A program made the translations under genes and the position numbers. This document shows, one piece after another, positions 6,903 through 56,956 of a DNA stretch of 64,000 nt. Position 1 is the first letter of the stretch, and each line of letters begins with the position of its first letter. This stretch comes from Deltaproteobacteria bacterium (GTDB taxonomy: Bacteria > Myxococcota_A > UBA796 > SXON01), in assembly GCA_014191855.1 (NCBI GenBank), contig BJHF01000010.1, positions 1,121-65,120 on the forward strand, read 5' to 3'. A model generated the notes under the pieces. The model was not told the DNA's origin, did no database searches, and saw nothing but the letters and a program-made list of their open reading frames with translations.

Positions 6903-9900
6903 ATGCGCCTGCTCCCGCTCCTGCTGTTCCCGCTCCTCGGCTGCCCGCAAACGGGCGACACCGACGTGAAGGACACCGCCACGATCAACTCGGGGACGGA
7001 CCCTCACGACGATGACCGCGACGGAGTCACCGACGAAGCAGGAGATTGCGACGACAACGATGACGACGTGTTCCCCGGCGCGCTGGAGCTCTGCAACGGC
7101 GTGGACGACAATTGCGACGGCACCGTGGACGAGGGCGTCACGCTCAAGTGGTACGCCGACGAAGACGACGACGGCTTCGGTTCGACCACCAACTTCACCG
7201 AGGCGTGCACCGCGCCCGACGGCTACGTCGACCGCGGCACCGACTGCGACGACACGAACGGCACGATCTATGCCAGTGCCCCGGAGCTCTGCGACAGCCT
7301 CGACAACGACTGCGACGGGGAGATCGACGAGTCGCTGGGCGAGAGCTGGTACACAGACGCCGACGGCGACGGGTACGGAGATCCGGCGACGGAAGTGACG
7401 ATGTGCGACGGTTCGAGCGGGCTGAGCGCCGTCGGCACGGACTGCAACGACGCGGATGCGGCCATGAGCCCCGGGGCAGACGAGGTGTGCGATGGCATCG
7501 ACAACAACTGTGAGGGGACCATCGACGAGGCCTCCGCGGTCGACGCGGCGACCTGGTACCTCGACTACGACGGCGACGGCTACGGCGGCACCCGCCTGTC
7601 GGAGACCGGATGTTCGCCGAGCGAAGGGTACGTCGACAATGCGGATGACTGCGACGACGTCGATGAGTCGGTCTTCCCCGGCGCGACCGAGACGTGCAAC
7701 CTGGTAGACGACGACTGCAACGGCCTCGTGGATGATGGCACGACGGGGGCGACGACCTGGTATGCGGACGCGGACGGCGACGGCTACGGGGATGTGAGCG
7801 TTGGCGCCGCGAGCTGTGACGCGCCGGCCGGGTATGTGGCAGACGCCACGGATTGCGACGACACGGACGCGGCGGCGAACCCGGGCGAGACGGAATTGTG
7901 CAACGGGGTAGACGACAACTGCGATGGCGCGACTGATGAAACCGGCGCCCTGGGATCGCTGACCTGGTATGCCGATGCCGACGGCGACAGCTACGGCGAC
8001 GCCGGCACCAGCACCGACGCCTGCACCCAGCCCGCGGGCTACCTGAGTGACGACACCGATTGCGACGATACGAACGCCAGCGTCAATCCGGCGGGCTCCG
8101 AGGTGTGCGACGGCGTGGACAATGACTGCGATGGATCGACAGACGGCGCCGACTCGGCAGACGCGACCGTGTGGTACTACGACTACGACAGCGATGGGTA
8201 CGGGGGCTCAACCCTGCTCGAAACCGCGTGTTCACCCTCCGCCGGCTTCGTGGCCGACTCCACGGATTGCGATGATGGAGAGGCCAACACCTTCCCCGGC
8301 GCGCCGGAGTCGTGCAACGGAGAAGACGACGACTGCGACGGCGTGGTCGATGAAGCCGACGCGACCGACGTGAAGACCTGGTATGCGGACGCGGATAGTG
8401 ACGCGTATGGGGACGCGAGTGTCACCTATGATTCCTGCGACGCGCCGGTTGGCTACGTCTCCAATGCAACGGACTGCGATGACACCGACGCGGACGTGAG
8501 CCCCGGCGACCGTGAGGTGTGCGACGGCGCCGACAACGACTGCGACGGCGTGACCGACGAAGCCGACGCCATCGACGTCACGGACTGGTTCGTAGACGCC
8601 GACAGCGATGGGTACGGCGATGCATCCGTGTCCACCGCCGCATGCGACGCGCCGGCGGGCTACGTCGCGGACGACGAGGACTGCGACGACGCAGATGCCT
8701 CGATCAACCCGGGTGAAGACGAATACTGCAATGGCACCGATGACGATTGCGATGGCGCCACGGACGAAGCCGGCGCCGTGGACGTGTCGGCGTGGTACAG
8801 CGATGCCGACAGCGATGGGTATGGGGACTCCGGCAGCTCTTCGATTGGGTGCAGCGCGCCGGCCGGCTACGTTTCCGACGCGACGGACTGCAACGATGCC
8901 GATGCGAGCATCAACCCCGGCGTGAGTGAGGAGTGCAACGGGATCGACGACGATTGCGACGGCCTCGTCGACGACGGCAGCTCCGTCGGCGCCGACACCT
9001 GGTACGCCGACGACGATGGCGACGGCTACGGCGATCCCTCCGACTCCCAAACATCCTGTACGCAGCCCAGCGGCTACATTGCCGACGACGACGACTGCGA
9101 CGACACCGATGCCGACATTTCGCCCTCCGGCGAAGAGCTGTGTGATTCGGTCGACAACGACTGCGACGGCTCGGTCGACGAGTCCGACGCGACGGACGCC
9201 ACCACTTGGTACGCCGACGCCGACGGCGACGGCTCGGGCGACGCTTCGGTGAGCACCGTCGCTTGCGATGCTCCCGTCGGCTATGTCGACAACGACGACG
9301 ATTGCGACGATACGGACCCGTCGTCGGCGGCGTGCTCCTGCACCCTCTCCGCGATCGGCGGTCCGACCAACCTGCTCATGCAGGGGCCAACGTACGGATC
9401 CTGGGTGGCGGACCCGCTCGAAACGCTCGGCGCCGGCCTGATCTGGGAAATGCCCAGCTACAGCGCCGTCACCTCCCTCACGCGCTTCGCCAGCGAAGCG
9501 AACATGATCAGCCGCACCAGCCCCACCACCACCACGCTCACCTACGGCTGGGATGGCACCGGTGGCGTCGTGTACGATGGGTACCTGTACTACAACCGCG
9601 CGGCGACCACCACGCTGGTGAAGGTCGACCTCTCCACGAACACGGTCGTCGCTACGCTGGCGCTCACCGGAGCCGGCGTGCACAACACCTACCACTACCA
9701 GTGGGGCGGATATTCCGATATCGACTTCGCGGCGGATGAGCAGGGCTTGTGGGTCATCTACGCGACGCCCGCCAATTCGGGTCGCCTCGTCGTCAGCAAG
9801 ATCGATCCGGCCACGTTCACGCTCTCCGCGACCTACAACACCACCTCCGCCGGCAAGACCAGCATCGGAAACGCATTCATGATCTGCGGCGTGCTGTACG

Positions 9901-10100
9901 CGACCAACAGCTACAGCTCGTCCACCGCCACCATCAACTACGCGTACGACACCGCCACCGGCACTTCCTCGTCGCCAGGGATTCGGATCCCCAACAACTA
10001 CGGCTACAACACCGAGCTCCAATACAACTCGAATAATGGGCGCATCTACGGTTGGGACAACTCCCACCGCGTCTACTACACGACCACGCTCGTGTACTGA
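6903..10100 (+). CDS. Lipoprotein: ~11-12 MopE-like Cys/Asp-rich repeats plus C-terminal olfactomedin (OLF) domain
   Basis: 1065 aa with lipobox LLFPLLGC. Tandem units follow D.DGDGYG..C..P.GYV...DCDD.D....PGA.E.CDG.DNDCDG..DE. For the C-terminal ~255 aa see the OLF feature. Confidence 0.9.
   Translation: [1065 protein letters not shown]
7014..9320 (+). repeat. Coding tandem array of MopE-like putative metal-binding repeats (~48-50 aa units)
   Basis: I counted 11 complete [DN]C[DEN]Gx[IVLT]D[DE] modules plus a partial one. The repeats are imperfect, in frame and without spacers. Confidence 0.85.
9330..10097 (+). other. Olfactomedin-like (OLF) domain-coding segment
   Basis: [68 protein letters not shown] and [14 protein letters not shown] match, block for block, the myocilin/olfactomedin OLF signature recalled from memory ([46 protein letters not shown], DYNP...LFAWDN). 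Confidence 0.8.
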
Positions 10101-10123
10101 GGCCAGAAGGGGTAGAGGAGGGG

Positions 10124-11044
10124 ATGCGGGCGGTGTCGTTCCTGCCGTTTCTGGGGCTCGCCGCCTGCGCCCCGGAGGCGGCCCCGGATGCTTGGGCGGC
10201 TTCGTCCTGTGATTCCTCGGCGCCCTACCTCGGTCGTGCGCGCTCCTCCAGCCGGCGGGATCTGCGCCTCGTGCTGCGCGATGGCGCGGAGCTTGCCCTC
10301 TCGACGCGCGCTCCGGACGGGATCGCCTGCGTCGGCGCGGTCGTGGAGGTTCCCCCCGGCTTCGACACCGGCACACCCTACCTCGACCGCGATCAAGCCC
10401 AGCTCCTCGCTCGGGCCGGACTGCTCGTCGTCACCTTCGATCCGCGCGGTCGCGGCGAAAGCGGCGGCGTCGACGACGAGAACGGTCCCACCGGGCAAGA
10501 CGACTTCGCGGAGGTGTTGCGCTGGACGAGCGCCCAGTCCGGCGTTGACGCGGACTCCATCGTCATCTGGTCCCGCTCCTTCGGAGGCGCGCTCGCCGGC
10601 GGGGCGATCGGCACCTTTGAGGATCTCCAGCCGCGTGCCTGGATTGACTACGAGAGCCCGGCCATGTTGGCGATCGATCTTCCGTACGCGGATGCCTTCA
10701 CCTCGGAGCGGATGTTCGCGTTGGCGGAGGCCTCGGGGGATGCGGAGGCCTGGCTCCTCGAACGCTCTCCCGCCGCGCACATCTCGTCGATGACCGCGCC
10801 CTACCATCGCCTCCAAGGGGCCTCAGACCATGCGCTCGATACGCTCGACGCCGCCGCCGAAATGCTCAATGCGGCCGCGAGCAGCGAGCACCGCCTCCTC
10901 AACGGAAAGGTCGTCACCACGCCGCTCACCGAGGACGACATCCACGACCACGCCTACGGCGGCCGCTTCGATCCCGATGGCGACATCGCGACGCGGGCGG
11001 TCATCGAGGCGTCGGGCTTTTCGCCCGGGGCGTCGGTGCGGTAG
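10124..11044 (+). CDS. Alpha/beta hydrolase lipoprotein
   Basis: Track ORF trimmed to the ATG at 10124, which is preceded by GAGGAGGGG. Lipobox FLGLAAC. The nucleophile-elbow-like segment is IVIWSRSFGGALAGG, with Asp/His candidates downstream. Confidence 0.7.
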   Translation: MRAVSFLPFLGLAACAPEAAPDAWAASSCDSSAPYLGRARSSSRRDLRLVLRDGAELALSTRAPDGIACVGAVVEVPPGFDTGTPYLDRDQAQLLARAGLLVVTFDPRGRGESGGVDDENGPTGQDDFAEVLRWTSAQSGVDADSIVIWSRSFGGALAGGAIGTFEDLQPRAWIDYESPAMLAIDLPYADAFTSERMFALAEASGDAEAWLLERSPAAHISSMTAPYHRLQGASDHALDTLDAAAEMLNAAASSEHRLLNGKVVTTPLTEDDIHDHAYGGRFDPDGDIATRAVIEASGFSPGASVR

Positions 11045-11096
11045 CGACGATCGGGTGCTACACTCGCGCCTGGCACGGCGACTCAGCGGAGGCGCG

Positions 11097-12473
11097 ATGT
11101 TCGTATTTTTCCTGACCCTGTTGCCACCCGCCGAGGCGTTCTGCGGCACCTACGTCGGCACCGACGGCTCGCCTGTCCACAACCGCGCGAGCCAGGTCGT
11201 GGTCGCCACCGACGGCAGCCAGACGGTGCTCACGCTGGCGAACGACTACGACGGCGATGCGGCGGCCTTCGGGCTGATCATCCCCGTTCCAAGCACCGTT
11301 CGGGTGGAAGACGTCACGGTCACCACCCGGGATGCGCTCGATACGCTCGACCTCTACAGCGCCCCCCGCATGGTGGCCTACACGTGCGAGGACGTGGTGT
11401 GGGTGCCGGGAGAGACGGGCGGCTGGGAGGATCTCGGCCCCGGGGGGAGCAGCTCCGGGTGCGGCGGATCCAGCTCCTCCCCCGAGTTCTCGCAGCAGTC
11501 CGACTCGGGAACGGAGGGGTACGAAACCGGCGGCGGGCTCGGGACCGGCCGCTTCGCGCGGGGTGCGAGCAGCGAACACTTCACAGCCGGCGAGTACGAG
11601 CTGGATCTGGTGGACGCCGCCGGCCCGCGAGGGCTCCAGGTTTGGCTTGACGCGAGCGGCTTTGTGCTCCCCGAAGGCGCGGAAGCCGTGCTTGCCGAGG
11701 CGGTGACCGCCGGCGCGAGCTTCCTCGTGGCCCGGGTGGTGCCGGAGGCCGTTTCCGAGGAGCGCACGTGGCTTTCGCCCATCCAGATCCGCTATGACGG
11801 CACCGAGATGGTGCTGCCGATTCGCCTGGGCGCCACGGCGTCGGAGGGCGAGCAGGACATCCTGGTGTATGGCATCGGTCCGTCAGAAACCGGGGCGCTC
11901 GCAATCGCGAATTACCCGTCATTCACCGTGGATACCCACTGCCTCATCGGGGATGATCTGTCGGGCGGCTACGAGGCGCTGTTCACGGAGGCCTACGCGG
12001 CCGCAGCGCGAGAGGGGAGGGCCGGCTGGGCGCTGGAGTTCCTCTCGGAGCAGGGTGTCTGCGATCCGCTTCCGCCCGATGGTCCTATCGAAAGCAGCGT
12101 TCTCGCCGCGCTGGGGTTCGCGGGCGGCATCGAGAACGCCACGCTGTCGCGCCTCCACGTTCGCGGGAGCGCCGGCGAGATCGACCAGGACCTTGTACTC
12201 TACGCGAGTGGCCTGAACAGCTACTGGCAGCAGGACTACATCCAGTCGGCCGATCACATGGACGCCTACTTCCGCGAGTGTGGCGCGAACACGATCGTGG
12301 GGGAGGAGTCCTGCCCCGAGCCCGACTACGACCCGCCGAGCGCGGACGTCGAGGACAACGCCGATCTCGGGCAGGACGACGACGCCTCCTCCTCCAGCAG
12401 CCTCTGCGCGTCGGGGATGATCGTGCCGCTCCTGCTGTTCTCGGCCGCCGCGCTCCGTCGCCGGCGGGCATAG
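11097..12473 (+). CDS. DUF2330-family secreted protein with MYXO-CTERM-like tail
   Basis: Trimmed to the ATG at 11097. N-terminus AFCGTYVG...NRASQVVVATDGSQTVLTLANDYDGDAAAFGLIIPVP matches the DUF2330 pattern as I recall it. The C-terminus SSSSLCASGMIVPLLLFSAAALRRRRA is Cys + hydrophobic + Arg cluster. Confidence 0.75.
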   Translation: MFVFFLTLLPPAEAFCGTYVGTDGSPVHNRASQVVVATDGSQTVLTLANDYDGDAAAFGLIIPVPSTVRVEDVTVTTRDALDTLDLYSAPRMVAYTCEDVVWVPGETGGWEDLGPGGSSSGCGGSSSSPEFSQQSDSGTEGYETGGGLGTGRFARGASSEHFTAGEYELDLVDAAGPRGLQVWLDASGFVLPEGAEAVLAEAVTAGASFLVARVVPEAVSEERTWLSPIQIRYDGTEMVLPIRLGATASEGEQDILVYGIGPSETGALAIANYPSFTVDTHCLIGDDLSGGYEALFTEAYAAAAREGRAGWALEFLSEQGVCDPLPPDGPIESSVLAALGFAGGIENATLSRLHVRGSAGEIDQDLVLYASGLNSYWQQDYIQSADHMDAYFRECGANTIVGEESCPEPDYDPPSADVEDNADLGQDDDASSSSSLCASGMIVPLLLFSAAALRRRRA

Positions 12474-20190: not shown

Positions 20191-20264
20191 TGGCGGGGTA
20201 GGAAGGAATCGAACCTTCGTCGTCCGGTTAACGGCCGGGCGCTCTTCCATTGAGCTACAACCCC
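20191..20264 (-). tRNA. tRNA-Asn (GTT), slightly off-consensus
   Basis: 74 nt including encoded CCA. My fold: acceptor GGGGUUG/CUACCCC with one U-U mismatch, and D loop AAUGGAA. The anticodon loop is CCGUUAA, where C at position 33 is unusual. The T arm is GAAGG-UUCGAUU-CCUUC. Confidence 0.75.
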
Positions 20265-20271
20265 GAATAGG

Positions 20272-20343
20272 TCGGAGAACCTGGACTTGAACCAGGAACC
20301 TCTCGGTTCCAAACCGAGCGCTCCACCATTGAGCTATTCCCCG
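20272..20343 (-). tRNA. tRNA-Pro (TGG)
   Basis: 72 nt with no encoded CCA. Acceptor CGGGGAA/UUCUCCG with one G-U, D arm GCUC-AAUGGUG-GAGC, anticodon loop UUUGGAA, and T arm CCUGG-UUCAAGU-CCAGG. Confidence 0.9.
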
Positions 20344-20351
20344 AAAAGAAA

Positions 20352-20425
20352 GGTGATCGACCGGACTCGCACCGGCTTGAAACGGCTCCACAAGCCGTTG
20401 TTTCGTCTACTTCAACCTCGATCAC
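20352..20425 (-). tRNA. Non-canonical tRNA-like gene, His anticodon (GTG)
   Basis: 74 nt with no CCA. Perfect 7-bp acceptor GUGAUCG/CGAUCAC and C73. Anticodon arm ACGGC-UUGUGGA-GCCGU. T arm GCCGG-UGCGAGU-CCGGU, with G at position 55. Position 8 is A, the D stem is only GUU/AAC, and the D loop GAAGUAGACGA has no GG. The base at -1 is U, so no G-1 is encoded. Confidence 0.55.
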
Positions 20426-20427
20426 AG

Positions 20428-20503
20428 TGGCGGCCCCGACGGGTGCTTCCCCCGCTATCTCCGCTTAGACAGAGCGGTGACTCTGATGTATGTCTCCAGG
20501 GCC
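20428..20503 (-). tRNA. Non-canonical tRNA-like gene, Asp anticodon (GTC)
   Basis: 76 nt including G73 and encoded CCA. Acceptor GGCCCUG/CGGGGCC with one G-U. Anticodon arm CCGCU-CUGUCUA-AGCGG, with U at position 37. T arm GCGGG-GGAAGCA-CCCGU, a non-UUC loop. Position 8 is G, the D stem is GAC/GUC, and the D loop AUACAUCAGA has no GG. Confidence 0.5.
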
Positions 20504-20506
20504 AGA

Positions 20507-20582
20507 TGGTGCGCGAACCCGGGTTCGAACCGGGATTTCAGCCTTCGGACGGCGGTGTCCTCTCCAATTGGACGATCCACGC
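20507..20582 (-). tRNA. tRNA-Arg (CCG)
   Basis: 76 nt including CCA. Acceptor GCGUGGA/UUCGCGC with two G-U pairs, and D arm GUCC-AAUUGGAGA-GGAC. The anticodon loop is GUCCGAA, with one C-U mismatch in its stem. The T arm is CCCGG-UUCGAAC-CCGGG. Confidence 0.85.
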
Positions 20583-20586
20583 GAAT

Positions 20587-20665
20587 TGGTGCACACGGCA
20601 GGACTTGAACCTGCGACCTCTCGATTCGTAAACGAGTGCTCTGATTCCGACTGAGCTACGTGCGC
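20587..20665 (-). tRNA. tRNA-Arg (ACG)
   Basis: 79 nt including CCA. Acceptor GCGCACG/CGUGUGC with one G-U, an 11-nt D loop containing GG, anticodon loop UUACGAA, and T arm GCAGG-UUCAAGU-CCUGC. Confidence 0.9.
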
Positions 20666-25672: not shown

Positions 25673-27877
25673 ATGTTCGGCACCCTCCTGGCCCTCGTGA
25701 GCGGCTGCACCTTGTTGTCCGAAGGCGACTGGGCGCAGCGCCTCGATCCCGATCACGACGGCGTGAAGTTCCCGTATGACTGCGACGATCGGGATGCGAC
25801 GGTGGGCGAGGAGGTGTTGGTGTACCTGGACGAAGACCGGGATGGCCACGGCACCGAAGCGTCGGGAACGGAGGTTGCGGCCAACAAGTGCCCGGGCACG
25901 CGAGGCTGGGCGGTGGAGCGGGGCGATTGTGACGACGCGAACGCCGTGATGAACACCGACGAGGTGGAGGTGTGCGATGGCTTCGACAACAATTGCGACG
26001 GTGAAGTCGACGATGGCTTGTTGTTCGTCGCCTATTACCTCGACGCGGATGGTGATGGTTTCGGGGTAAACAGCACGATCGAGATGGTGTGTAGCCCACT
26101 CGAGGGCTACGTCACGAGCAAGGGCGATTGCGACGACACCGATGCGCGCCGCGGCCCCGGCTTTGTCGAGGTTTGCGATGGGGTGGACAACGACTGCGAC
26201 GGTCGGATCGACGAGGGCCTGCTCGTCACCACGGCTCGCGACTTCGACGGGGACGGCTACGGCGACCCCGGGCTCACGGAGGAGCTGTGCACCGTCCCCG
26301 CCGGGTATGGAGAGCCGAGCGATTGTGACGACGGGGACCCTGCGGTGTACCCGGGCGCGCCCGAGGACTGTGAGAATGGGATCGACGAGGGCTGTCGAGG
26401 CTTCGATGAAACCGACACCATGTACCCGGACAACGACTCCGATGGATACGGGGTGACCGAGCTCGGCCAGCCCGCGTGTCCGGAACGTCCAGACTGGTCG
26501 CTCAGGGACGGCGACTGTGACGACAACAACTCGGCGATCAGCCCGGGTAAAGGAGAAGTGTGCCCCGATGGGATCGATAATGACTGCGATGGCACGATCG
26601 ACGGCGTAGACCAGTGGCAGGATCGGGACAAGGACGGCGCGGGGGACCCCGCGAGCTTCAAGAACGCCTGCTCGCTCTCCAGCGGGTGGACGACCAACGA
26701 TTTCGACTGCAACGACAGCAGCAGCGCGGCGCCCCGCTACGTCGCAACCACCGGTGTGGCTGGGGCTACCGGGACGGCGGCCGATCCGTACCCCACGATC
26801 GCGGCTGGACTGACGGGCGGGTCTGCGTGCCTGGTGCTGGCTCCCGGAACCTATGCCGAATCGCTGCAGCCGACCCACGACGTCGAGCTGTGGGGCGCCG
26901 GCGAGCTGGATGAGACCGTCCTGGCCGGCGACGGCGGAGTTTGCGCTGGCGGAGACTGGACCGCGTGCCGCGCTACCCTCGCGGTGAGCGGCGTCGACGT
27001 CACGCTGATGGACCTGACCGTGCAGGGTGGCACCGGAAGGGGGTCGGTAACGACAGAACCTGGGTTTGAAGACCAGTTTGTGTGTGGCGGCGGCGTGTAC
27101 ATCGACTCCGGCAGTGTCACGATGGAGCGCGTTGTGGTGCAGGCCGCCGTGCTCCCGGAGACCGAGACTGGGACGACGTCGGCGGGGGACGCCTATTCGC
27201 TCACGAGCGGCGGCGGCGGGCTGTGCGCGCTTGGTGGGGACGTGCAATTGACCGATACCGTCTTTGATGGGAACAGCGCGGAGCTTGGAGGCGGCGTGTA
27301 TTTCGACGGCGGCGGGTCGCTCGTCGCGCGCCGTGTGGCCTTCACCGAAAACGCCGCAACCCAGGGCGGCGCCGCGTGGCTGGGCGAGGGCTCGATGCGG
27401 TTCAACCAGGTTCGCGCATGGTGCAACGGGGCCACGGCCGGCGGCGGCGCCTACTTTGTAGGCAGCGCGTTCGCCAACGTTTCCTTCGACTACGCCGATT
27501 TTGCCTGGAACACGGCGGGGGGCGATGCCACCGAGCTCTGGGCCGAGGCCGGCTCGGTGGTGGACCTCGGCAGCGTCATCGTGGTGGGCTCCACACCGGA
27601 CATCCCCGCGCTCGACGGCGAAGGCAGTGTTCGCGCCCGTTATTCCGTGGGGTCCGAGGTGGCGGGCACCACCTTCGAGCAGGTGTGGTACGACTCGACC
27701 GTGATCACGACGGCCGACGAGTTGTTCACGCCCTCTTGCGACGGCGACCGTACGAACGACAGCTTCGTCCTCCCTGCGGGCTCCATCGCCATCGACGCGG
27801 GAGATGTGGCCGACCTCGACGCGGATGGATCCCGCGCCGACGCCGGGAGCAACGGCGGCCCAACCGGTGCCTGGTGA
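25673..27877 (+). CDS. Lipoprotein: ~4 MopE-like repeats plus Pmp-like right-handed beta-helix
   Basis: 734 aa with lipobox LALVSGC. Repeat modules are NCDGEVDDG, DCDGRIDEG and DCDGTIDGV. The C-terminal half has GGGVY/GGGAY...F.xN repeats typical of polymorphic-outer-membrane-protein/PbH1 beta-helices. Confidence 0.85.
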   Translation: MFGTLLALVSGCTLLSEGDWAQRLDPDHDGVKFPYDCDDRDATVGEEVLVYLDEDRDGHGTEASGTEVAANKCPGTRGWAVERGDCDDANAVMNTDEVEVCDGFDNNCDGEVDDGLLFVAYYLDADGDGFGVNSTIEMVCSPLEGYVTSKGDCDDTDARRGPGFVEVCDGVDNDCDGRIDEGLLVTTARDFDGDGYGDPGLTEELCTVPAGYGEPSDCDDGDPAVYPGAPEDCENGIDEGCRGFDETDTMYPDNDSDGYGVTELGQPACPERPDWSLRDGDCDDNNSAISPGKGEVCPDGIDNDCDGTIDGVDQWQDRDKDGAGDPASFKNACSLSSGWTTNDFDCNDSSSAAPRYVATTGVAGATGTAADPYPTIAAGLTGGSACLVLAPGTYAESLQPTHDVELWGAGELDETVLAGDGGVCAGGDWTACRATLAVSGVDVTLMDLTVQGGTGRGSVTTEPGFEDQFVCGGGVYIDSGSVTMERVVVQAAVLPETETGTTSAGDAYSLTSGGGGLCALGGDVQLTDTVFDGNSAELGGGVYFDGGGSLVARRVAFTENAATQGGAAWLGEGSMRFNQVRAWCNGATAGGGAYFVGSAFANVSFDYADFAWNTAGGDATELWAEAGSVVDLGSVIVVGSTPDIPALDGEGSVRARYSVGSEVAGTTFEQVWYDSTVITTADELFTPSCDGDRTNDSFVLPAGSIAIDAGDVADLDADGSRADAGSNGGPTGAW

Positions 27878-30502: not shown

Positions 30503-33500
30503 ATGAAACCGCCTGTCCCTCCCTCGATCCTCCTCGTTTCCCTGCTGGTTCTCGCCGGCTGCCCCGGCGGCGGGGGCGCCGACACCAAGGTGCCCGATCA
30601 TGACTCCGGGGTGACGAGCGACGCGGATGCCGACGGGTACACGGCCGATGCCGGTGATTGCGACGACCACGAAGACAGCGTGTTTCCGGGCGCGGTGGAG
30701 CTGTGCAACGGCGTAGACGACAATTGCGATGGCGCGATCGACGAGGGTGTAACCTCGAGATTCTACGCGGATGTTGACGGCGACGGCTTTGGCTCCACCA
30801 CCGACTTCACGGAGGCTTGCTCTGGCCCGGTGGGCTTCGTTGAGCGCGGGACCGATTGCGACGACGGCAATGCGGCTGTGTACCCGGGCGCGGAGGACGT
30901 GTGCGACGACGTGGACAACGACTGCGACGGGGACGTTGACGAGGATGGCCTCACGACGTTCTACGTCGACGCGGACCGCGACGGCTACGGAGACCCTGCC
31001 GCGCCGAAAGAGGCGTGTGCGGGCTCTCCGGGCGTCGTGGCGGACGGCCGCGATTGCGACGACGACGACGCGACCAGCTACCCGAGCGCACGTGAACTGT
31101 GCGACGGCGCGGACAACGACTGCGACGGCGAGATCGACGAAGAAACCGGCCTCGATCAAGACTGGTTTCAGGATCGCGACGAGGATGGTTTCGGGGACCC
31201 GGCGCGGAGTGTGAGCGCTTGCGCGCCGCCGGACGGTTACGTTGAGCAGGGAACGGATTGCGACGATCTGGCCGCGGAGACGTGGCCGGGCGCCGAGGAG
31301 GTGTGCGACAGAGCGGACAACGACTGTGATGGCGAGCTCGACGACGGCGCGGTGGACGCCCTCGCCTGGTACGCCGACGCCGACGCCGATACATTTGGCG
31401 ATGTGTCGGTTGTGTCATGGGCGTGCACAGCGCCGATCGGCAGTGTCGCAGACGCCGGCGACTGCGACGACGCGAACCCCTCAGTCTCCCCGGCGGCGGC
31501 CGAGCTGTGCGACGGTATCGACAACAATTGTGATGGTTCAACGGATGACTCAAGCGCGGCCGACGCGGCGGTCTGGTACGCGGATGGGGATGGGGACGGG
31601 TTTGGGGATGCCACCAGCTCCGCCACGTCCTGCGCCCAACCGGCCGGCTGGCTCGCCGACTCAACCGACTGCGACGACACCTCGGCCGCCGTAAGTCCGG
31701 CTTCGGCCGAGCTGTGCAACGGTGCCGACGACGACTGTGACGGGGACACCGACGAGGACTCGGCCACCGACGCGCCCACCTGGTACCAGGACCGCGATGG
31801 CGACGGCTACGGGGACGCAGCCCGTACCGACATCGCGTGCAGCGCGCCGGCGGACTACGTCGCGGCGGGGACCGATTGCGACGATCTGGCCGCGGAGAGC
31901 TGGCCCGGCGCCGATGAGCTCTGCGATGGGGACGACAACGACTGTGACGGCACGGTGGATGAAGACGCCATCGACGCGCTGGAGTGGTACGCGGATACGG
32001 ACGGGGACGGGTTCGGCGATGCGGCGAGTGTGTCGCTCTCCTGTTCCGCGGTGGCGGGGAGCGTGGCAGACGCTTCGGATTGCGACGACACGGACGCAGG
32101 GGTCAGCCCCGATGCGCTGGAATTATGTAATGGTGTGGACGATAACTGTGATGGGGCCACCGACGAAGCCACCGCGCTGGACGCTGGAACCTGGTACGCC
32201 GACGCAGATGCCGATGGGTATGGCGAAGCAGCAACCTCCGTCGTGGATTGCAGCGCTCCGGCGGGCTGGCTCGCGGATGCCTCCGACTGCGACGACACCG
32301 CGGCCGACGTGAACCCGGGCGCGCTGGAGCTGTGCAACCTGATCGACGACGATTGCGACGGCGTGCTCGACGAGGACGACGCCATCGACGCGGCGACGTG
32401 GTACGCGGATCGGGACAGCGACGGGTACGGCGACGCGGCGCTCGGGGTGCCGGCCTGCTCCCAACCCCTGGCGTACGTGGCGGATGATACGGACTGCGAC
32501 GACCTCGACTCCGGCAGCTACCCCGGCGGCCTGGAAGTGTGCGATGGCGCCGACAACGACTGCAACGGGACCGCCGACGACGCCGCGTTGGACGCCTCGA
32601 CCTGGTATGCGGATGCGGATGGCGACGGCTACGGGGATGCTGCCGTGACCACGGATGCTTGCGATGCGCCCGCCGACATGGTGGGTGATGCCACGGATTG
32701 CGACGATGCAGACTCAAGTAGCCACCCGGGCGGGACCGAGGTGTGCGATGGCGCGGACAATGACTGCGACACGACGATCGACGAAGCTGGCGCGGTTGGG
32801 GAGCTCGACTGGTATGTGGACGGTGACGCCGATGGCTACGGCGATGAGGCCGACGCGCCGACCGTCGCCTGCGACGCGCCCGCGGGCACCGTCGCTGACA
32901 ACACCGACTGCGACGACGCCACGAGCGACGTGAACCCCGGCGAAACGGAGTACTGCGACGGCACCGACAACGATTGCGACGGCTCTGAGGATGGCACGGT
33001 CACCTTCACTGATACATCTGGCACGGTGTCGGATGTATCCGCGGCGTGGGGCGCGGGTACTCGAGCGTCGCCGGCCGGGATCACGACCAGCACGAGCGGC
33101 ACCTATGACCTGTGCGATGGCACCTACTACGTCGAGTTCACCACGTCGGCCGTGGATGTCACGCTCGAGGGGTTCAACGGATCAGCGTACACCGAGCTCA
33201 ACGCGAACGGGTCGGGGCGCGTGGTGTGGGCGACGGGCGGCGTTTCGCTCGTGGGCCTCACCCTCGCCGACGGGTATGCCGTCGGCACCGGGGGCACGCT
33301 GTTTGTGTCGGGCGGCGACGCCGTTCTCGACGATGTGATCGTCAGCGACGGCGCCGCGTCGAAGGGTGCCAACATTGGCTGCTCCTCGTGCACCCTGGAC
33401 CTTACCGACGTGACGGTGGAGAACGGGGCCGGTACGAGCGGTGGCGGCGTCTTCGTTACCGCGGGCACCGTGACCGGCAACACCGTCGTGGTATCGGGCA

Positions 33501-34012
33501 ACAGCGCGGCTTCGGGGGCGGGGATGTACTTCAGCAGCTCAAGCACCGGCACGTTCACGGGGCTCGACCTCTCCAGCAACACCGCAACCGGCAACGGCGC
33601 GGGCCTCTACCAGAGCGGCGGAACGGTGACGCTCACCCGGTCCTCCATCACGAGCAACTCCGGCGCGGACTACGGCGGGGGCGTGTACCTTTCGGCCGGA
33701 ACGTTCCGGATGACGACCTCCAACATCGACTCGAACGACGCGGCTGTTTTGGGTGGTGGCGCCTACCTTACAGGCGCTGCGAACCTGTATTGCACGGGCA
33801 GCAGCACCACCAACGCGGGGATCTGGGGCAACACTGCCCTCGTGGCCGGCGGCGCCTACCTCGCCACGACGACCGCCTACCTCAGCTCCACCACCTGCGA
33901 TTGGACGGCCTCGTCCGACAACTCGCTCTACGACATCGTCACCTCGTTGCTGAACATCTACAACAAGGGGAACAACGCGTCGTTCACGTGCACCGGCGGC
34001 TCCTGCACCTGA
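30503..34012 (+). CDS. Lipoprotein: ~12 MopE-like repeats plus Pmp-like beta-helix
   Basis: 1169 aa with lipobox LLVLAGC. There are 12 [DN]CD[GT]xxD[DE] modules. The C-terminal ~340 aa has GGGVF/GAGMY/GGGVY/GGGAY repeats with SxN turns. Confidence 0.9.
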   Translation: MKPPVPPSILLVSLLVLAGCPGGGGADTKVPDHDSGVTSDADADGYTADAGDCDDHEDSVFPGAVELCNGVDDNCDGAIDEGVTSRFYADVDGDGFGSTTDFTEACSGPVGFVERGTDCDDGNAAVYPGAEDVCDDVDNDCDGDVDEDGLTTFYVDADRDGYGDPAAPKEACAGSPGVVADGRDCDDDDATSYPSARELCDGADNDCDGEIDEETGLDQDWFQDRDEDGFGDPARSVSACAPPDGYVEQGTDCDDLAAETWPGAEEVCDRADNDCDGELDDGAVDALAWYADADADTFGDVSVVSWACTAPIGSVADAGDCDDANPSVSPAAAELCDGIDNNCDGSTDDSSAADAAVWYADGDGDGFGDATSSATSCAQPAGWLADSTDCDDTSAAVSPASAELCNGADDDCDGDTDEDSATDAPTWYQDRDGDGYGDAARTDIACSAPADYVAAGTDCDDLAAESWPGADELCDGDDNDCDGTVDEDAIDALEWYADTDGDGFGDAASVSLSCSAVAGSVADASDCDDTDAGVSPDALELCNGVDDNCDGATDEATALDAGTWYADADADGYGEAATSVVDCSAPAGWLADASDCDDTAADVNPGALELCNLIDDDCDGVLDEDDAIDAATWYADRDSDGYGDAALGVPACSQPLAYVADDTDCDDLDSGSYPGGLEVCDGADNDCNGTADDAALDASTWYADADGDGYGDAAVTTDACDAPADMVGDATDCDDADSSSHPGGTEVCDGADNDCDTTIDEAGAVGELDWYVDGDADGYGDEADAPTVACDAPAGTVADNTDCDDATSDVNPGETEYCDGTDNDCDGSEDGTVTFTDTSGTVSDVSAAWGAGTRASPAGITTSTSGTYDLCDGTYYVEFTTSAVDVTLEGFNGSAYTELNANGSGRVVWATGGVSLVGLTLADGYAVGTGGTLFVSGGDAVLDDVIVSDGAASKGANIGCSSCTLDLTDVTVENGAGTSGGGVFVTAGTVTGNTVVVSGNSAASGAGMYFSSSSTGTFTGLDLSSNTATGNGAGLYQSGGTVTLTRSSITSNSGADYGGGVYLSAGTFRMTTSNIDSNDAAVLGGGAYLTGAANLYCTGSSTTNAGIWGNTALVAGGAYLATTTAYLSSTTCDWTASSDNSLYDIVTSLLNIYNKGNNASFTCTGGSCT
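30620..33000 (+). repeat. Coding tandem array of MopE-like repeats (12 units)
   Basis: The repeat grammar is the same as at 7014-9320. The units are imperfect and in frame. Confidence 0.85.
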
Positions 34013-34590
34013 TGGGTCGCCGCGGGCTACCGGTTCTGCACACCGCGCGCCTCGTGCTGAGGCCTTGGCGCGAGCGCGATCGTGCGCCCTTCGCCGCCAT
34101 CAACGCGGATCCCGAGGTGATGGAGTTTTTCCCGTCCACCCTCACGCGCCCCGAGTCGGACTCGATGGTCGATGTGTTCCGCGCCAATGCCAAGCGGCGC
34201 GGCTTCGGCATGTTCGCCGTCGAAGAGCGTGAAACGGGCACCTTCCTCGGCATGGCGGGGCTGACGTTGCCGGACGAGGAGGCGCCGTTCATGCCCGCCG
34301 TCGAGATCGGCTGGCGCTTCGCCCGCTCGGCGTGGGGTCGGGGTTTTGCGACAGAGGCGGCGAGGGAAGTTTTGACTTGGGCGCTCCACGGGCTGCTTCT
34401 TCCCCGCGTCGTGTCGTTCACGGTCTACGAAAATAAACGTTCGTGGCGGGTGATGGAGCGCATCGGGCTGGCGCACATCGACGATACAGGCCGGCCCGTC
34501 GCCGCGGCGAGCCGGGGCCAGCATGCGCACCTCTTGTATGCCGTAGACCGGGCGGCGCTTCCCGCGGCTATGCCATCGCCGCGTCGGTGA
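34012..34590 (+). CDS. GNAT family N-acetyltransferase (RimJ/RimL-like)
   Basis: The ATG at 34012 overlaps the upstream stop (TGATG). LHTARLVLRPWRERDRAPFAAINADPEVMEFF and GWRFARSAWGRGFATEAAREVLTWA fit the Acetyltransf_3 pattern. Confidence 0.8.
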   Translation: MGRRGLPVLHTARLVLRPWRERDRAPFAAINADPEVMEFFPSTLTRPESDSMVDVFRANAKRRGFGMFAVEERETGTFLGMAGLTLPDEEAPFMPAVEIGWRFARSAWGRGFATEAAREVLTWALHGLLLPRVVSFTVYENKRSWRVMERIGLAHIDDTGRPVAAASRGQHAHLLYAVDRAALPAAMPSPRR

Positions 34591-35881
34591 TGTCCAGGGC
34601 TCGATCCAGGATCTCGAAACCATCGTTGAGCTGGGCTTCGGTGATGGAGAGCGGGGGGTTGCACATGATCCCGTCCCAACGGACGAAGGTGACGAGGCCG
34701 TTCTCCACGAGGAAACGGTTGAGTTGGGCCATGGCCGGGTGCGCATCCGGGTAGTGGGCAATCGGGTTGCCCGCCTTGTCCTGGATCTCCAGGATCCCGA
34801 ACAAGCCAAAACAACGGCCACGCCGTACCGAGGGGTGCTTCAGCCGCAGCCGCTCCATGTGGGCGCGCACGATGGGCTCCATCTTCGCCGCGTTCTCCAC
34901 CATGCCTTCGTCGATCAGCACGTCGATACACGCCAGCGCACAGGCGAGCAGCGTGGGGTGCGCGTTGTAGGTGAGCCCGCCCCAGAACACGTTCTTGCGA
35001 AAGTGTTCGGCGATGGGGTCGGACACCGCCATGGCGCCCAGCGGGAGGTAGGAGCTGGTGAGCCCCTTCGCCATGGTGAGAATATCCGGGAGGATGCCGC
35101 CATGTTCGAAGGCGAACAGCTTGCCGGTGCGCCCCCACCCGCACATCACCTCGTCGCAGATGAGCAGGATGCCGTATTTGTTGAGCAACGCGCGCAGCCC
35201 AGCCAACCAGCCGCGCGGCGGCATCAGGATGCCGTTGGTGCCGGTTACCGTTTCGATGATCATCGCCGCGATGGTGGTCGGGCCCTCAGAGCGGATCGTC
35301 TCCTCCAGATAGCGGAGGTGGTTCGCGGTGATCGTGTCTTCATCGTCGCCGAAGGAGTAGTCGTAGGGCCACGGATCGAGCACGCGCACGAACCCGGGGG
35401 CTCCGGGCTCGTTGTACCAGCGCCGGTTGTCACCCGTGGCCTGCAACGTAAGGTTGGTGCCCCCGTGGTAGCTGCGGTAGCGGGAGAGGATCTTGTTTCG
35501 ACCGGTGTAGAGGCGGGCCGCCCGGATCGCGTTCTCGTTGGCTTCTGCGCCGCCGAGCGTGAAGAAGAAGGTGTTCAGGTTGCCGGGGACGAGCTCAGCC
35601 AGCCGCTTCCCGAGCTTCGCCCTCACCTCTGTGGCGGCGCCAGGGTACGCGAAGGCGAGCGTGGCCATCTGCTCCGCCACCGCCGCGAGCACCTTCGGGT
35701 GCGAGTGGCCGATGTTCACCGACATCAGGCCGCTGTTCCAGTCGAGATACCGCTTCCCATCGACATCCCAGAGGTACACGCCCTCGGCCCGCGCGACGGG
35801 CAGCGGATCCACCTTGCCGGTGGCGGACCAGGAGTAGAGCGTGTGTTCGAGGCAGGCGGAGACGATCTCGTCGCGGTTCAT
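34568..35881 (-). CDS. Class-III (omega) aminotransferase, PLP-dependent
   Basis: 437 aa. Motifs are NIGHSHP, TLGGAEANENA, DEVMCGWGRTGKLFAFEH and the PLP-lysine context LTMAKGLTSSYLPLG. Confidence 0.9.
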   Translation of the reverse strand: MNRDEIVSACLEHTLYSWSATGKVDPLPVARAEGVYLWDVDGKRYLDWNSGLMSVNIGHSHPKVLAAVAEQMATLAFAYPGAATEVRAKLGKRLAELVPGNLNTFFFTLGGAEANENAIRAARLYTGRNKILSRYRSYHGGTNLTLQATGDNRRWYNEPGAPGFVRVLDPWPYDYSFGDDEDTITANHLRYLEETIRSEGPTTIAAMIIETVTGTNGILMPPRGWLAGLRALLNKYGILLICDEVMCGWGRTGKLFAFEHGGILPDILTMAKGLTSSYLPLGAMAVSDPIAEHFRKNVFWGGLTYNAHPTLLACALACIDVLIDEGMVENAAKMEPIVRAHMERLRLKHPSVRRGRCFGLFGILEIQDKAGNPIAHYPDAHPAMAQLNRFLVENGLVTFVRWDGIMCNPPLSITEAQLNDGFEILDRALDITDAAMA

Positions 35882-42379: not shown

Positions 42380-42525
42380 GGAAGGCGGCGCGGTGGCTAT
42401 AAGCCACGCCGGACAGCGCGACCGCTGGCCTGATGGCGCCGCGATGCCGGGCGAGGCCCGTTCGCGTGAGACCTGGCCTGCGGCATCGCCCCCATCCCCC
42501 TCGGTCTTTGTGCCGATGTCCGACC

Positions 42526-45372
42526 GTGTGCGTCAGCGGTAACGTACGTCGCGGGGTGCTCTTCGTGCCTTCCCTGATCCTCCTGGTCCTCTCCCTCCTC
42601 CCTGGCTGCACCCCGGAGCTGGATGCGCGGGCCAGGTTCGAGGCGGAGGTCGTGCCGGTTCTCCAGGCTCGATGCCTCAATTCGGCGTGCCATGGCGTCG
42701 AGGCCGGGGCCGAGCCGGAGCTGACCATCGACTGGACCCGAATGGTCGTCCAGCTCGACGCTCAGGGCGAGATCACCGACCTCGACGCCGCCTACGAAAC
42801 CGTTCGCCGCTACGTCGTAACCAACGAAGATCCGAAGTTCTCCTCGTTGCTGACCCGCCCGCTGCCCGCGGAGTTCGGCGGCACCCAGCACTACGGCGGG
42901 GCGTGCTTCACCTCTCCCGAGGATCCGGACTGGGTTGCCATGCGTGATTGGGTCGCGACCGAATCGGAGGGTGGGGAGGAACAGCCGGAGCTGAACGACC
43001 GGGAGCAGCTCTTCGCGGACACCGTACAGCCGCACCTCGTGGCCCGCGGATGCATGACCGGAAACTGCCACGGGCTCTCGGCCGCGCTGCCCTACCGCTT
43101 CGATGGCGGAGTTCAAGGGGAGTTTTCCCGCGCCTCCACCCGGGCCAACTACAGCTCGGCGCTTTCGATGGTGTCTTTGGATGGCGACGCCACGCAGTCG
43201 CGACTCATCCGGAAGGGACTCAACCTCTTCGCGGGAGGGATCATCCACAAGGGCGGGAACCAGGCGTTCTTCACCGGTCTGGGTGACGAAGCCGTGGACG
43301 CGGTAGAGGCCTGGGCGTGCGAGGAGCGCCGGGCGCGGCTCGGGGTGCCCTGCGAGGCCGCTTCGGACGGATTTGTATACGTACGCGGCCCGGTTGAGGC
43401 GGAGGACCCCTTCGACCTTGATGCGTTCGTGCCGGGCAGCGACATCTGGTGGTCCCGCGCCGACGGCAGCCGGGAGAACCTGACGGAGAGTCTACACCTT
43501 GGGGCGGCAGATGTCCGGGAGCCCGCGGTGGATCCGACGGGCACCCGGTTGGCCTTCGTGATGCGGGAGGAGGGGGACGCCGGGCATCACGCCTGGGTGA
43601 TGGACCTGAACACCCGGGTCGCGACGCAGGTGACCACGGGGGATGTCGGCGCCGACCGCGATCCCACCTGGTCGCCCGATGGAAAGTTGTGGTTCACCTC
43701 GTCCCGAGCCGGGATCCTCGCGGACGATGGCGTGCGGCTCGACGCCGAGCTGTACGAGTTGAACCTCTCAAGCGGCGAGGTGACCCGCCGCACGTGGACG
43801 CCCCACATCGAGCGCAAGCCGGTGTTCTTCGTCATTGGCACGGAAAACGGGGGGGAGGTGGGCTTCACTGCCCTGCGCGAGGCGATTCGGAGCAAACAAC
43901 GCGCCCACATCTTCCGGTTTCCGCCCGATCTGGAGACGGAGTACCACCCCCATTTTGGGATCTCCGCGCCGGAAAACATGTTCTACGACATGCGGGAGCT
44001 CCCGGACGGCCGATTCAGCGTGATCCTGTCCGAGGTGAACAACGTTTGGGAGGGAGGGCGCTTGGCGATCGTGGAGCGCAACTTCGGACCCGAGATTCCG
44101 GCGGGAGGAGAAGATTCCGCCTCGATCCCGTTCTATGCCGACCCGATCGCGCGGCTGGACGACGAGGCAGCGGCCTCGGGCGTCTCTGGCAGCCTGTATC
44201 GCGATCCTTCCGCCGAGCCGGACGGTCGCGTGTTGGTCGCGCGGGCGATCGGCCCGATTGACCTTGGAGATCCGGAAGCGACACCCGTGTTCCGCATTGA
44301 ACGCCTGACGTTGGCCGAGTCGGTGAGCGGGGAGGGCCCCTCCATCTCCGGGCGGGAGGTGGTGCTCGAAGAAGCAGGGATGTCCGTGTATGATCCGGAG
44401 CCGGTGTATGTGCGCCGCGGCGCTCCGCTGGTGGCGGAGCCGTCCTGGGATCCGGCGGAGACGACGGGGGTGGTGCGGGTGATCGGGTTGGGCACCATCG
44501 CTTCGTTGTTGCTGGACTTGCCGCCAACCGGAGCCAAGCCCGTTGCGTATGGGGTGGTGGGCGTGCGGCTCGTGGAAGCGCTGCCACTTACCCCCGCTGA
44601 GCGCGTCGCGGTGCCTGAGGCCGACCTGCGGGATGGAGCCTCGAACGCCACCAGCACCGGCATCGGCCCTTTCCCGCCCGCGCGGGTGCTCGCCGAGCTG
44701 CCGATCGCGGCGGACGGTTCGTTGTATGGGGAGCTTCCGGCGGGGGTATCGTTCCGGCTGCAGCCGCTCGACAGCAGCGGGCGGGCGATCGACATTGACT
44801 ACAATCGTTGGTACTACGTGGCCCCCGGGCAGGTGCTGACCCAGGGTGTTTCAGCGACGGACGACCATTACTACACGTTCGCGTGCGCCGTGTGCCACGG
44901 ATCGATGAGCGGGGTTCCCGAAGACGTGTTCGTCGAGCCGGACATCATGACCACCGCCTCGATCTCGCTGGCGCAGTATGTCAACAAGGATCCACGCCGC
45001 CCGATCGCGCCGCCCCAGGCGGGCGACGCGACTCGCGTGGAGGCCGATTGGCGGAGGGACATCCTGCCGATCCTCACGGGCGGCTGCGCTTGGGGCGGGT
45101 GTCACTCCGCGCAAGACAGGGCCGCGGGCCTGAGCCTGACCGCGGAGGCGACGACGTGGTTTGACGATGCGTACGAGAGCCTCTTGGGCGGGTATGTGGT
45201 GCCGGGCAGCAGCTACCAGAGCCACCTTACGGAGGTGCTCACCGGCGAGGAATTGACGGCGAGCGCTGCGCTTGCCGCGCCTGGGACACCGCACGGCGGG
45301 CTCACCACCGAGGAGATCCTGGCGATCACGCGCTGGATCGATCTCGGCGCCACCTGGCGGGGAACCCCATGA
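42526..45372 (+). CDS. Lipoprotein with PSCyt-like Cys-His motifs and PD40/TolB-like propeller repeats
   Basis: Start uncertain: a GTG at 42526 gives MCVSGNVRRGVLFVPSLILLVLSLLPGC, and another GTG lies at 42556. Motifs are VVPVLQARCLNSACHG, VQPHLVARGCMTGNCHG, FACAVCHGS and ILPILTGGCAWGGCHS. The middle carries DPTWSPDGKLWFTS-type PD40 repeats. Confidence 0.75.
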   Translation: MCVSGNVRRGVLFVPSLILLVLSLLPGCTPELDARARFEAEVVPVLQARCLNSACHGVEAGAEPELTIDWTRMVVQLDAQGEITDLDAAYETVRRYVVTNEDPKFSSLLTRPLPAEFGGTQHYGGACFTSPEDPDWVAMRDWVATESEGGEEQPELNDREQLFADTVQPHLVARGCMTGNCHGLSAALPYRFDGGVQGEFSRASTRANYSSALSMVSLDGDATQSRLIRKGLNLFAGGIIHKGGNQAFFTGLGDEAVDAVEAWACEERRARLGVPCEAASDGFVYVRGPVEAEDPFDLDAFVPGSDIWWSRADGSRENLTESLHLGAADVREPAVDPTGTRLAFVMREEGDAGHHAWVMDLNTRVATQVTTGDVGADRDPTWSPDGKLWFTSSRAGILADDGVRLDAELYELNLSSGEVTRRTWTPHIERKPVFFVIGTENGGEVGFTALREAIRSKQRAHIFRFPPDLETEYHPHFGISAPENMFYDMRELPDGRFSVILSEVNNVWEGGRLAIVERNFGPEIPAGGEDSASIPFYADPIARLDDEAAASGVSGSLYRDPSAEPDGRVLVARAIGPIDLGDPEATPVFRIERLTLAESVSGEGPSISGREVVLEEAGMSVYDPEPVYVRRGAPLVAEPSWDPAETTGVVRVIGLGTIASLLLDLPPTGAKPVAYGVVGVRLVEALPLTPAERVAVPEADLRDGASNATSTGIGPFPPARVLAELPIAADGSLYGELPAGVSFRLQPLDSSGRAIDIDYNRWYYVAPGQVLTQGVSATDDHYYTFACAVCHGSMSGVPEDVFVEPDIMTTASISLAQYVNKDPRRPIAPPQAGDATRVEADWRRDILPILTGGCAWGGCHSAQDRAAGLSLTAEATTWFDDAYESLLGGYVVPGSSYQSHLTEVLTGEELTASAALAAPGTPHGGLTTEEILAITRWIDLGATWRGTP

Positions 45373-55902: not shown

Positions 55903-55934
55903 GCCGAAGCATACCACATCGCCGGGGGGTGCCC

Positions 55935-56942: not shown

Positions 56943-56956
56943 GGAATCTCCATAGA

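Follow-up and report, generated by a model that had tools for sequence, protein, structure and literature searches.

An olfactomedin domain on a predicted MopE-repeat lipoprotein encoded by an uncultured bacterium

We describe a bacterial gene in a 64,000-nucleotide (nt) stretch of contig BJHF01000010.1 (assembly GCA_014191855.1, from a Deltaproteobacteria bacterium) whose 1065-amino-acid (aa) product ends in an olfactomedin (OLF) domain. The whole stretch is referred to here as the window, the gene by its position (6903..10100), and the product as the OLF-MopE protein, after the OLF domain and the MopE repeats that precede it. Based on our results, we consider it reasonably probable that the OLF-MopE protein is a native and functional extracytoplasmic lipoprotein of a member of the Myxococcota, that its OLF domain is the head of an adhesin or receptor, and that the domain originated in an old transfer.

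The OLF domain and the native setting of its gene

Two Pfam families score above threshold in the OLF-MopE protein, PF11617 (Cu-binding_MopE) and PF02191 (OLF); no NCBIfam model matches it. PF02191 aligns with aa 815-1062 (nt 9345..10088) over profile positions 1-245 of 246, with an E-value of 7.7e-73 for the whole protein and of 2.4e-74 when 9330..10097 is searched alone. Its score is 245.5 bits, compared with a gathering cutoff of 23.9. An initial annotation, made from the sequence of the window, had placed an OLF domain at 9330-10097 and quoted blocks of OLF-like sequence. All of these blocks are present in the C-terminal part of the 1065-aa translation, the coordinates are accurate to within 5 codons, and the OLF call is borne out by the significant, full-length profile match. 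In a phmmer search of the Protein Data Bank (PDB), the C-terminal 286 aa match noelin/olfactomedin-1 (2e-59), myocilin (3e-52), latrophilin-3 (2e-49) and gliomedin (8e-28), and each match spans the whole OLF domain.

The predicted structure points the same way. An AlphaFold2 model of aa ~800-1065, built from a 49-sequence alignment, has a mean predicted local distance difference test (pLDDT) score of 93.2 and a predicted template modeling (pTM) score of 0.90. The best Foldseek matches of the model are mouse Olfm1 structures (6qm3, 6qhj and 4xat), with template modeling (TM) scores of 0.92-0.97 and root-mean-square deviations of 1.5-1.6 Å; structures of myocilin, latrophilin and gliomedin come next. 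Every one of the 50 best PDB matches is an OLF domain (TM scores of 0.83 upward, and 0.93 for the superposition on mouse olfactomedin-1), which rules out a different propeller family, an alternative that the initial annotation had left room for. We conclude that the C-terminal domain, as judged by its profile matches and its model, is a true OLF propeller.

The ion site of the propeller is partly conserved. In myocilin, Ca is bound by D380, N428 and D478 together with the backbones of A429 and I477, and mutation of D478 blocks Ca binding (PMC10762032). The counterparts of these three residues in the OLF-MopE protein are D941-N990-Q1040, that is, D-N-Q rather than D-N-D, and the sequence around Gln1040 is ELQYNS, compared with MLDYNP in noelin. 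Thus, of the internal Ca/Na-site residues to which the initial annotation had drawn attention, Asp941 and Asn990 are kept, but the third ligand is Gln instead of Asp. The Asp-Asn-Asp triad that is missing here is not universal within the family. In the domain alignment described below, D-N-D is found in 16 of 51 bacterial and 47 of 94 non-coral animal OLFs. Among the bacterial OLFs, the first two positions of the triad are almost invariant, and the third is D in those 16 and S, Q, T or another residue elsewhere. The Cys pair of the OLF disulfide is retained, with Cys811/813 and Cys995 at the aligned positions of a predicted disulfide. Cys occupies the column equivalent to C433 of myocilin in 33 of 51 bacterial OLFs, in all 12 coral OLFs and in 89 of 94 from other animals; its N-terminal partner in myocilin we take to be C245.

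OLF is otherwise an animal family, and the nearest named matches of the domain are in corals, a tunicate and vertebrates. Both facts would fit an artefact in which mis-assembly or contamination had fused an animal OLF exon with a bacterial contig, an explanation that we give next to no chance. The gene is a single uninterrupted open reading frame (ORF), and the GC content of the window is 64-71% throughout. The GC content at third codon positions (GC3) reaches 0.895 in the OLF part, compared with 0.843 for the stalk and 0.78-0.87 for seven other genes of the window. An index resembling the codon adaptation index (CAI), with the other genes of the window as reference, is 0.763 for the OLF part, 0.745 for the stalk and 0.66-0.76 elsewhere. 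By both measures, the codon usage of 9330-10097, which the initial annotation had proposed to compare with the rest of the gene, is fully native, and it remains so across the junction. The flanking genes are bacterial (a 4Fe-4S protein, a DUF6036 nucleotidyltransferase, an S9/S15-type hydrolase, a DUF2330 protein and a FadH-like oxidoreductase). The best named relatives of an aminotransferase encoded at 34568..35881 are in Myxococcota metagenome-assembled genomes (MAGs), Enhygromyxa, Plesiocystis and Pseudenhygromyxa, at 67-69% identity, and we therefore take the host to be an uncultured member of the Myxococcota. In short, the bacterial context, the native codons and the Myxococcota-like neighbours are not those of a metazoan genome.

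The same fusion is found in other assemblies. An identical 1065-aa protein was called on a 13-kb ENA metagenome scaffold. The closest relative, which we call L001, lies in an independent MAG; its OLF domain is 76% identical, the sequence at the stalk-OLF junction is the same, and a syntenic DUF2330 gene (73% identity) accompanies it. L001 is on a 3.9-kb contig of 65% GC (CAMBIK010000268.1) labelled MAG: Klebsiella pneumoniae, into which the contig was almost certainly mis-binned. Moreover, MopE repeats and OLF are joined in many independent assemblies, and the best identity to an animal OLF is only ~40%. Codon usage, orthologue synteny and the recurring fusion together rule out contamination or a chimera. 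Comparison of the 6903..10100 gene with that of L001 gives ratios of nonsynonymous to synonymous substitution (dN/dS) of ~0.18 for the OLF part and ~0.10 for the stalk, at dS values of ~1.0-1.5 that are near saturation; by these estimates, both parts are under purifying selection.

Table 1. Features of the 6903..10100 gene, with positions in the window
Feature	Position	Strand	Basis
Whole gene (1065 codons and a stop codon) for a predicted lipoprotein signal, a MopE-repeat stalk and a C-terminal OLF domain	6903..10100	+	ORF listing; Pfam PF11617 x11, PF02191
Predicted signal peptide and lipobox (L-L-G-C), with lipidation expected at Cys14 (6942..6944)	6903..6944	+	Sequence reading
Eleven MopE motifs (C-D-D...C.G.D..C.G) within ~69-aa repeats	7047..9170	+	Pfam PF11617, repeat register
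Truncated last half-repeat (C788, DC801DD), leading straight into the OLF N-terminal Cys pair	9171..9329	+	Repeat listing
Olfactomedin (OLF) five-bladed beta-propeller domain	9330..10097	+	Pfam, phmmer vs PDB, AlphaFold2, Foldseek
Cys811 and Cys813, one of them equivalent to the N-terminal member of the disulfide Cys pair in OLF domains	9333..9341	+	Cys811 aligned to noelin Cys
Cys995, counterpart of myocilin C433, second half of the OLF disulfide	9885..9887	+	Alignment
Asp941, counterpart of myocilin Ca/Na ligand D380, conserved	9723..9725	+	Alignment
Asn990, counterpart of myocilin Ca ligand N428, conserved	9870..9872	+	Alignment
Gln1040, at the place of myocilin Ca ligand D478, replaced	10020..10022	+	Alignment

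Distribution and history of bacterial OLF domains

OLF domains are rare in bacteria, as the initial annotation had supposed. We scanned one genome for each of 185,579 bacterial species with two peptide patterns, which gives a lower bound, and found at least 30 OLF loci in 24 assemblies (0.013%). The carriers are labelled as Myxococcota or 'Deltaproteobacteria' MAGs, 'Enterobacterales', Cognaticolwellia, Pseudomonadota/Alphaproteobacteria MAGs and Flavobacteriales, and they include a cultured organism, Gillisia marina CBA3202 (Flavobacteriales). Several of the 30 loci are on contigs of 100-350 kb, and some MAGs contain two to four OLF paralogues. For example, four paralogous lipoprotein-MopE-OLF genes from one MAG (L003, L004, L007 and L008; JBFYZZ01, PPR_0452) form a clade with 98% support, which indicates that the genes multiplied recently within one lineage. 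When 1.84 billion cluster representatives were searched with the profile (E <= 1e-3), 1202 OLF clusters were recovered, of which ~25 look bacterial by domain content.

Bacterial OLF domains are found in at least five architectures. The first, that of the OLF-MopE protein, is a lipoprotein with MopE repeats and a C-terminal OLF (clusters P0094, P0096 and P0098-P0101). In the second, a lipoprotein carries many ~90-aa Ig-like repeats and OLF; in the third, OLF is joined to a Stig1-like Cys-rich region; and in the fourth, to a pilin-like N-terminus (P0113). The fifth, from Flavobacteriales, has a signal peptide, an N-terminal OLF, HYR, Laminin-G, C-type lectin or Ig modules, and a tail for type IX secretion. 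A MopE stalk was found by tblastn at 18 or more of the 30 loci, and the MopE-OLF fusion is the commonest bacterial OLF architecture. The fusion of lipobox, MopE repeats and OLF, which was unfamiliar in the initial annotation, is thus not a one-off, since it recurs at these loci and in several metagenome clusters.

Two of these architectures gave additional observations. The N-terminus of P0113, a 398-aa protein from a metagenome, is MHKRGLMLVELVLGVALLGIL and resembles a type IV pilin/pseudopilin leader, suggesting that its OLF domain could be displayed on a pilus-like fibre. In Gillisia marina CBA3202 (locus L028), the OLF gene (7911..9335) is followed 24 bases on by an ORF for a 915-aa HYR-repeat protein (9359..12106), and the two may be one split gene. 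In a related protein from a MAG (L030, 7878..9590), OLF is fused with C-type lectin and HYR domains.

To compare bacterial and animal OLFs, we aligned 157 domains (51 bacterial and 106 animal) over 241 columns. Bacterial OLFs are on average 36-40% identical to those of noelin, myocilin, latrophilin, OLFML2, tunicates and corals, and ~30% identical to those of OLFM4 and of collagen-OLF proteins. Animal OLF subfamilies are 35-41% identical among themselves, and bacterial OLFs 24-83%. As estimated from these identities, the bacterial group is at the depth of the old splits between animal subfamilies. Because of this depth and the native codon usage, any inter-domain transfer must be ancient. A D-P-x-E-T-[L/N]-G motif near the N-terminus of the domain is present in 37 of 51 bacterial sequences and in 0 of 106 animal sequences. 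The 37 include OLF proteins of both the Myxococcota type and the Flavobacteriales type, a distribution more easily explained by one bacterial lineage that moved from phylum to phylum.

The choice that the initial annotation had posed, horizontal transfer or a conserved bacterial root, and the direction of any transfer were approached with a neighbour-joining tree of the 157 domains (200 bootstraps) and with four-point quartet sampling. In the tree, a split of bacteria and anthozoans from other animals has 40% bootstrap support, bacterial monophyly 17% and the anthozoan clade 100%. In the quartets, bacteria often pair with corals when the other members are noelin, myocilin or latrophilin; when OLFML2 is included, corals pair with OLFML2. 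Ying et al. found OLF in all scleractinian corals (10-20 copies) and not in sea anemones (PMC6214176), so the distribution of the domain in cnidarians is patchy.

Transfer from an animal to a bacterium is the more parsimonious direction, given that ~25 of ~1200 clusters are bacterial and that the domain occurs in 0.013% of bacterial species. In the reverse history, OLF arose in bacteria and was acquired by animals, or by corals, and the bacterial proteins are ancestral. A depth of bacterial OLFs equal to that of the animal subfamilies (identities of 24-83% inside the group and 36-40% to each subfamily), an anthozoan clade that falls among bacterial sequences in the tree, and the patchy cnidarian distribution all speak for such a history. 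However, only ~25 of the ~1200 clusters in all are bacterial, and the 24 carriers among 185,579 species are scattered over at least three phyla, the usual pattern for a domain that bacteria have acquired. In addition, the backbone of the tree is weakly supported and corals lean to animal OLFML2 in the quartets. We consider the reverse history rather improbable. We attach equally little weight to the broader notion that bacterial OLFs are an old independent lineage, which was either the donor of the animal or coral domain or an early recipient that kept an ancestral binding function. If this notion were true, an intron-less OLF made by bacteria, together with the cultured Gillisia marina CBA3202, would be a tractable model for identifying the ligand of the propeller, with relevance to glaucoma-associated myocilin.

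Proposed function of the anchor, stalk and head

The N-terminus of the OLF-MopE protein has Arg2, a hydrophobic core and then L-L-G-C, which is close to the lipobox pattern [LVI][ASTVI][GAS]C and is the lipobox of the initial annotation. Nine relatives (L006, L007, L010, L012, L014, L019, L020, L022 and L025) have N-terminal lipoboxes at the equivalent place, and among relatives there are the canonical forms LAAC, LVAC, LSAC and LIGC. The protein has 48 Cys downstream of Cys14, an even number, which would allow all of them to pair in disulfides outside the cytoplasm. Together, the predicted signal peptide with its lipobox and this even count of Cys speak for export.

Asp makes up 24% of the mature stalk (aa 15-809), whose net charge is -221. 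Pfam finds PF11617, a motif of 30 aa, in 11 stretches (E 5.9e-99; 324 bits compared with a gathering cutoff of 27), and the 11-12 Cys/Asp repeats counted in the initial annotation correspond to these 11 motifs and a twelfth that is cut short at Cys801. The period is 66-69 aa, and each repeat has a W-Y-x-D-x-D-G-D-G-Y-G loop and four Cys. An AlphaFold2 model of two repeats (pLDDT 95.6) is mostly irregular with short hairpins. Sequence comparison of the stalk with the PDB gave nothing beyond an insignificant EF-hand-like match, and Foldseek found no match to the stalk model among solved structures. From its motifs, we infer that the stalk is a Ca-binding, disulfide-stapled spacer.

The window encodes two more MopE-repeat proteins. 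One (30503..34012, +) has 12 MopE motifs, 45-60% identical in its repeats to the OLF-MopE protein, and a right-handed beta-helix C-terminal region; the other (25673..27877, +) has four motifs. They suggest a modular gene family in the host genome, with a stalk and exchangeable heads. In relatives, the stalk also occurs with a Lamin Tail Domain (LTD) head.

The name of the Pfam family raises the possibility that the OLF-MopE protein mainly binds or sequesters Cu or Ca, with OLF as an accessory. The 11 PF11617 motifs and the extreme acidity of the protein (net charge -221) would suit such a role. The same stalk, however, occurs with unrelated heads (the beta-helix in the window, the LTD in relatives), as fits a scaffold; its motif is Cys/Asp-rich, with the even Cys numbers expected for disulfides; and no copper-handling genes are nearby. 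We therefore regard a primary role in metal binding as very unlikely.

We propose the following model. The signal peptide would be cut at Cys14, and the protein would be lipid-anchored in the envelope. The stalk of ~800 residues (~11.5 repeats with DxDxDG loops) would fold extracytoplasmically into a disulfide-bonded, probably Ca-loaded extended rod and project the OLF propeller away from the membrane. The OLF domain would then be a ligand-binding head for a protein or glycan partner, and the whole protein would act as an adhesin or receptor. We also suspect that OLF crossed between animals and bacteria in a single old transfer, for which the animal-to-bacterium direction is the most parsimonious, and that it later spread to other bacteria and was combined there with local stalk and anchor modules.

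The reading as an adhesin or receptor follows from the position of OLF at the free end, from its adhesion-module partners and from the role of animal OLFs as binding heads. In bacteria, OLF is always at the free end of long repeat or surface-protein scaffolds. The PDB titles of OLF complexes include FLRT-latrophilin, teneurin-latrophilin and noelin-GluA (amino-terminal domain, ATD, of the AMPA receptor), and amassin, an OLF protein of the sea urchin, clots coelomocytes through cell-cell adhesion (PMC2173732). In these animal proteins, too, OLF is at the tip of a coiled coil or another spacer. By its architecture and by analogy with these animal proteins, the OLF-MopE protein is most likely a surface adhesin with OLF as the binding head.

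The head could instead bind a glycan (a polysaccharide, a glycosaminoglycan-like chain or exopolysaccharide), which would make the protein a lectin-type adhesin of the same architecture. OLFML2/photomedins, among animal OLF proteins, bind heparin and chondroitin sulfate, and Flavobacteriales carry OLF in fusion with, or next to, C-type lectin, Laminin-G/ConA-like and HYR modules. On the other hand, the OLF complexes solved in the PDB list are protein-protein (FLRT, the teneurin complex and the GluA ATD), and no carbohydrate-active enzyme or polysaccharide utilization locus (PUL) context was seen around the loci inspected. We think a glycan ligand unlikely, although of the alternatives considered here it is the one that we take most seriously.

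Several points weigh against the explanation that we favour, a native adhesin or receptor with an OLF head of ancient origin. Its function is deduced solely from architecture and from animal homologues. The lipobox is atypical in having Leu at position -2. With Gln as the third ligand, the internal Ca ion may be absent from the OLF domain, and the 'Ca-loaded rod' rests on sequence motifs because no solved structure matches the model of the stalk. When the neighbours in the window were searched by tblastn against all 30 OLF loci, only DUF2330 was found, in L001; because there is no conserved gene neighbourhood, the context offers no clue to a pathway. Finally, the neighbour-joining tree and the quartets resolve neither the backbone nor the direction of transfer.

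OLF has been described as a domain of 'multicellular organisms' (PMC4488277). Full-text literature searches, whose coverage leaves out most subscription journals, found no description of a bacterial OLF, and bacterial OLF sequences are already public as hypothetical proteins with precomputed Pfam OLF matches. What we report is thus not categorically new: the domain is known, and its taxonomic and architectural setting is what was undescribed. Adhesion domains of eukaryotic type are familiar from Myxococcota and marine Bacteroidota, and bacterial OLFs fit this pattern: OLF joins the animal-type adhesion modules (HYR, C-type lectin, LamG and the lamin-tail domain) on surface proteins of Myxococcota and marine Flavobacteriales. 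Even so, they should be clearly surprising to OLF and myocilin specialists. The domain has medical weight (myocilin in glaucoma, latrophilins, OLFM4), yet its basic biochemical function is poorly understood. A native bacterial clade provides an evolutionary reference outside animals and an old inter-domain transfer with a testable direction, and OLF domains that bacteria fold naturally could be used for studies of stability, the ion site and ligands. For annotation, bacterial OLF genes should not be dismissed as eukaryotic contamination.

Other features of the window and comparison with known systems

Within the window, no second copy of OLF was found, and a scan for promoters and terminators around 6903..10100 found none. 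An antisense ORF for 714 aa (8232..10376, -), rich in Arg, Gly and Val, overlaps the OLF gene; it is typical of the spurious ORFs common in high-GC DNA and was not counted as a gene. A cluster of large ORFs (56957..59941, 55935..57323 and 52747..55917, all -) includes one with a beta-helix/NosD-like region and four LTDs, a second with one LTD and a third with a PKD domain; the LTD is another eukaryote-associated module in the window. Two further products look like unusual redox or propeller proteins, as judged by their domain matches. In the 798-aa product of 47575..49971 (+), di-haem CCP/MauG and cytochrome c motifs accompany a beta-propeller (lactonase/YncE/cytochrome-d1-like), and the 979-aa product of 42433..45372 (+) matches PD40 and the 'hydrazine synthase alpha middle domain'. 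Four tRNA genes are clustered in 470 bases (20194..20665, -).

Myxococcota families of secreted proteins or lipoproteins with MopE repeats (PF11617) have the same kind of predicted lipobox and tandem 69-aa Cys/Asp repeats as the OLF-MopE protein. They end in a beta-helix or other head, whereas the head of the 6903..10100 protein is OLF. The type-3 Ca-binding repeats of thrombospondin and COMP have Asp-rich DxDxDG loops, disulfides and little regular secondary structure. The AlphaFold2 model of the stalk looks alike, but the stalk matches neither Pfam TSP_3 nor, by Foldseek or by sequence, such repeats in the PDB, and so it is not a member of that family.

The OLF proteins of Flavobacteriales (for example, those of Gillisia marina CBA3202 L028 and of clusters P0106, P0108 and P0111) contain bona fide OLF domains (E 1e-62 to 1e-69), and some share the bacterial DPLET signature. 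In these proteins, OLF is N-terminal, right after the signal peptide, unlike the C-terminal OLF of the 6903..10100 protein, and most lack the disulfide Cys.

Among animal proteins, noelin/OLFM1, myocilin and latrophilin (ADGRL) are the closest points of comparison. The OLF-MopE protein shares with them a full-length PF02191 domain, the same propeller, both disulfide Cys, the D and N of the triad, and the placement of OLF at the end of a long spacer, which is probably extracellular in the OLF-MopE protein as well. The animal proteins have coiled coil, lectin or collagen regions where the OLF-MopE protein has a predicted lipoprotein anchor and MopE repeats. The animal OLFs sampled lack the D-P-x-E-T signature, whereas the OLF-MopE protein, from a bacterial host, carries it together with a D-N-Q triad. 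Amassin, an animal protein with a coiled-coil region, offers a functional analogy only, that of extracellular adhesion by OLF, and no orthology to the OLF-MopE protein is implied.

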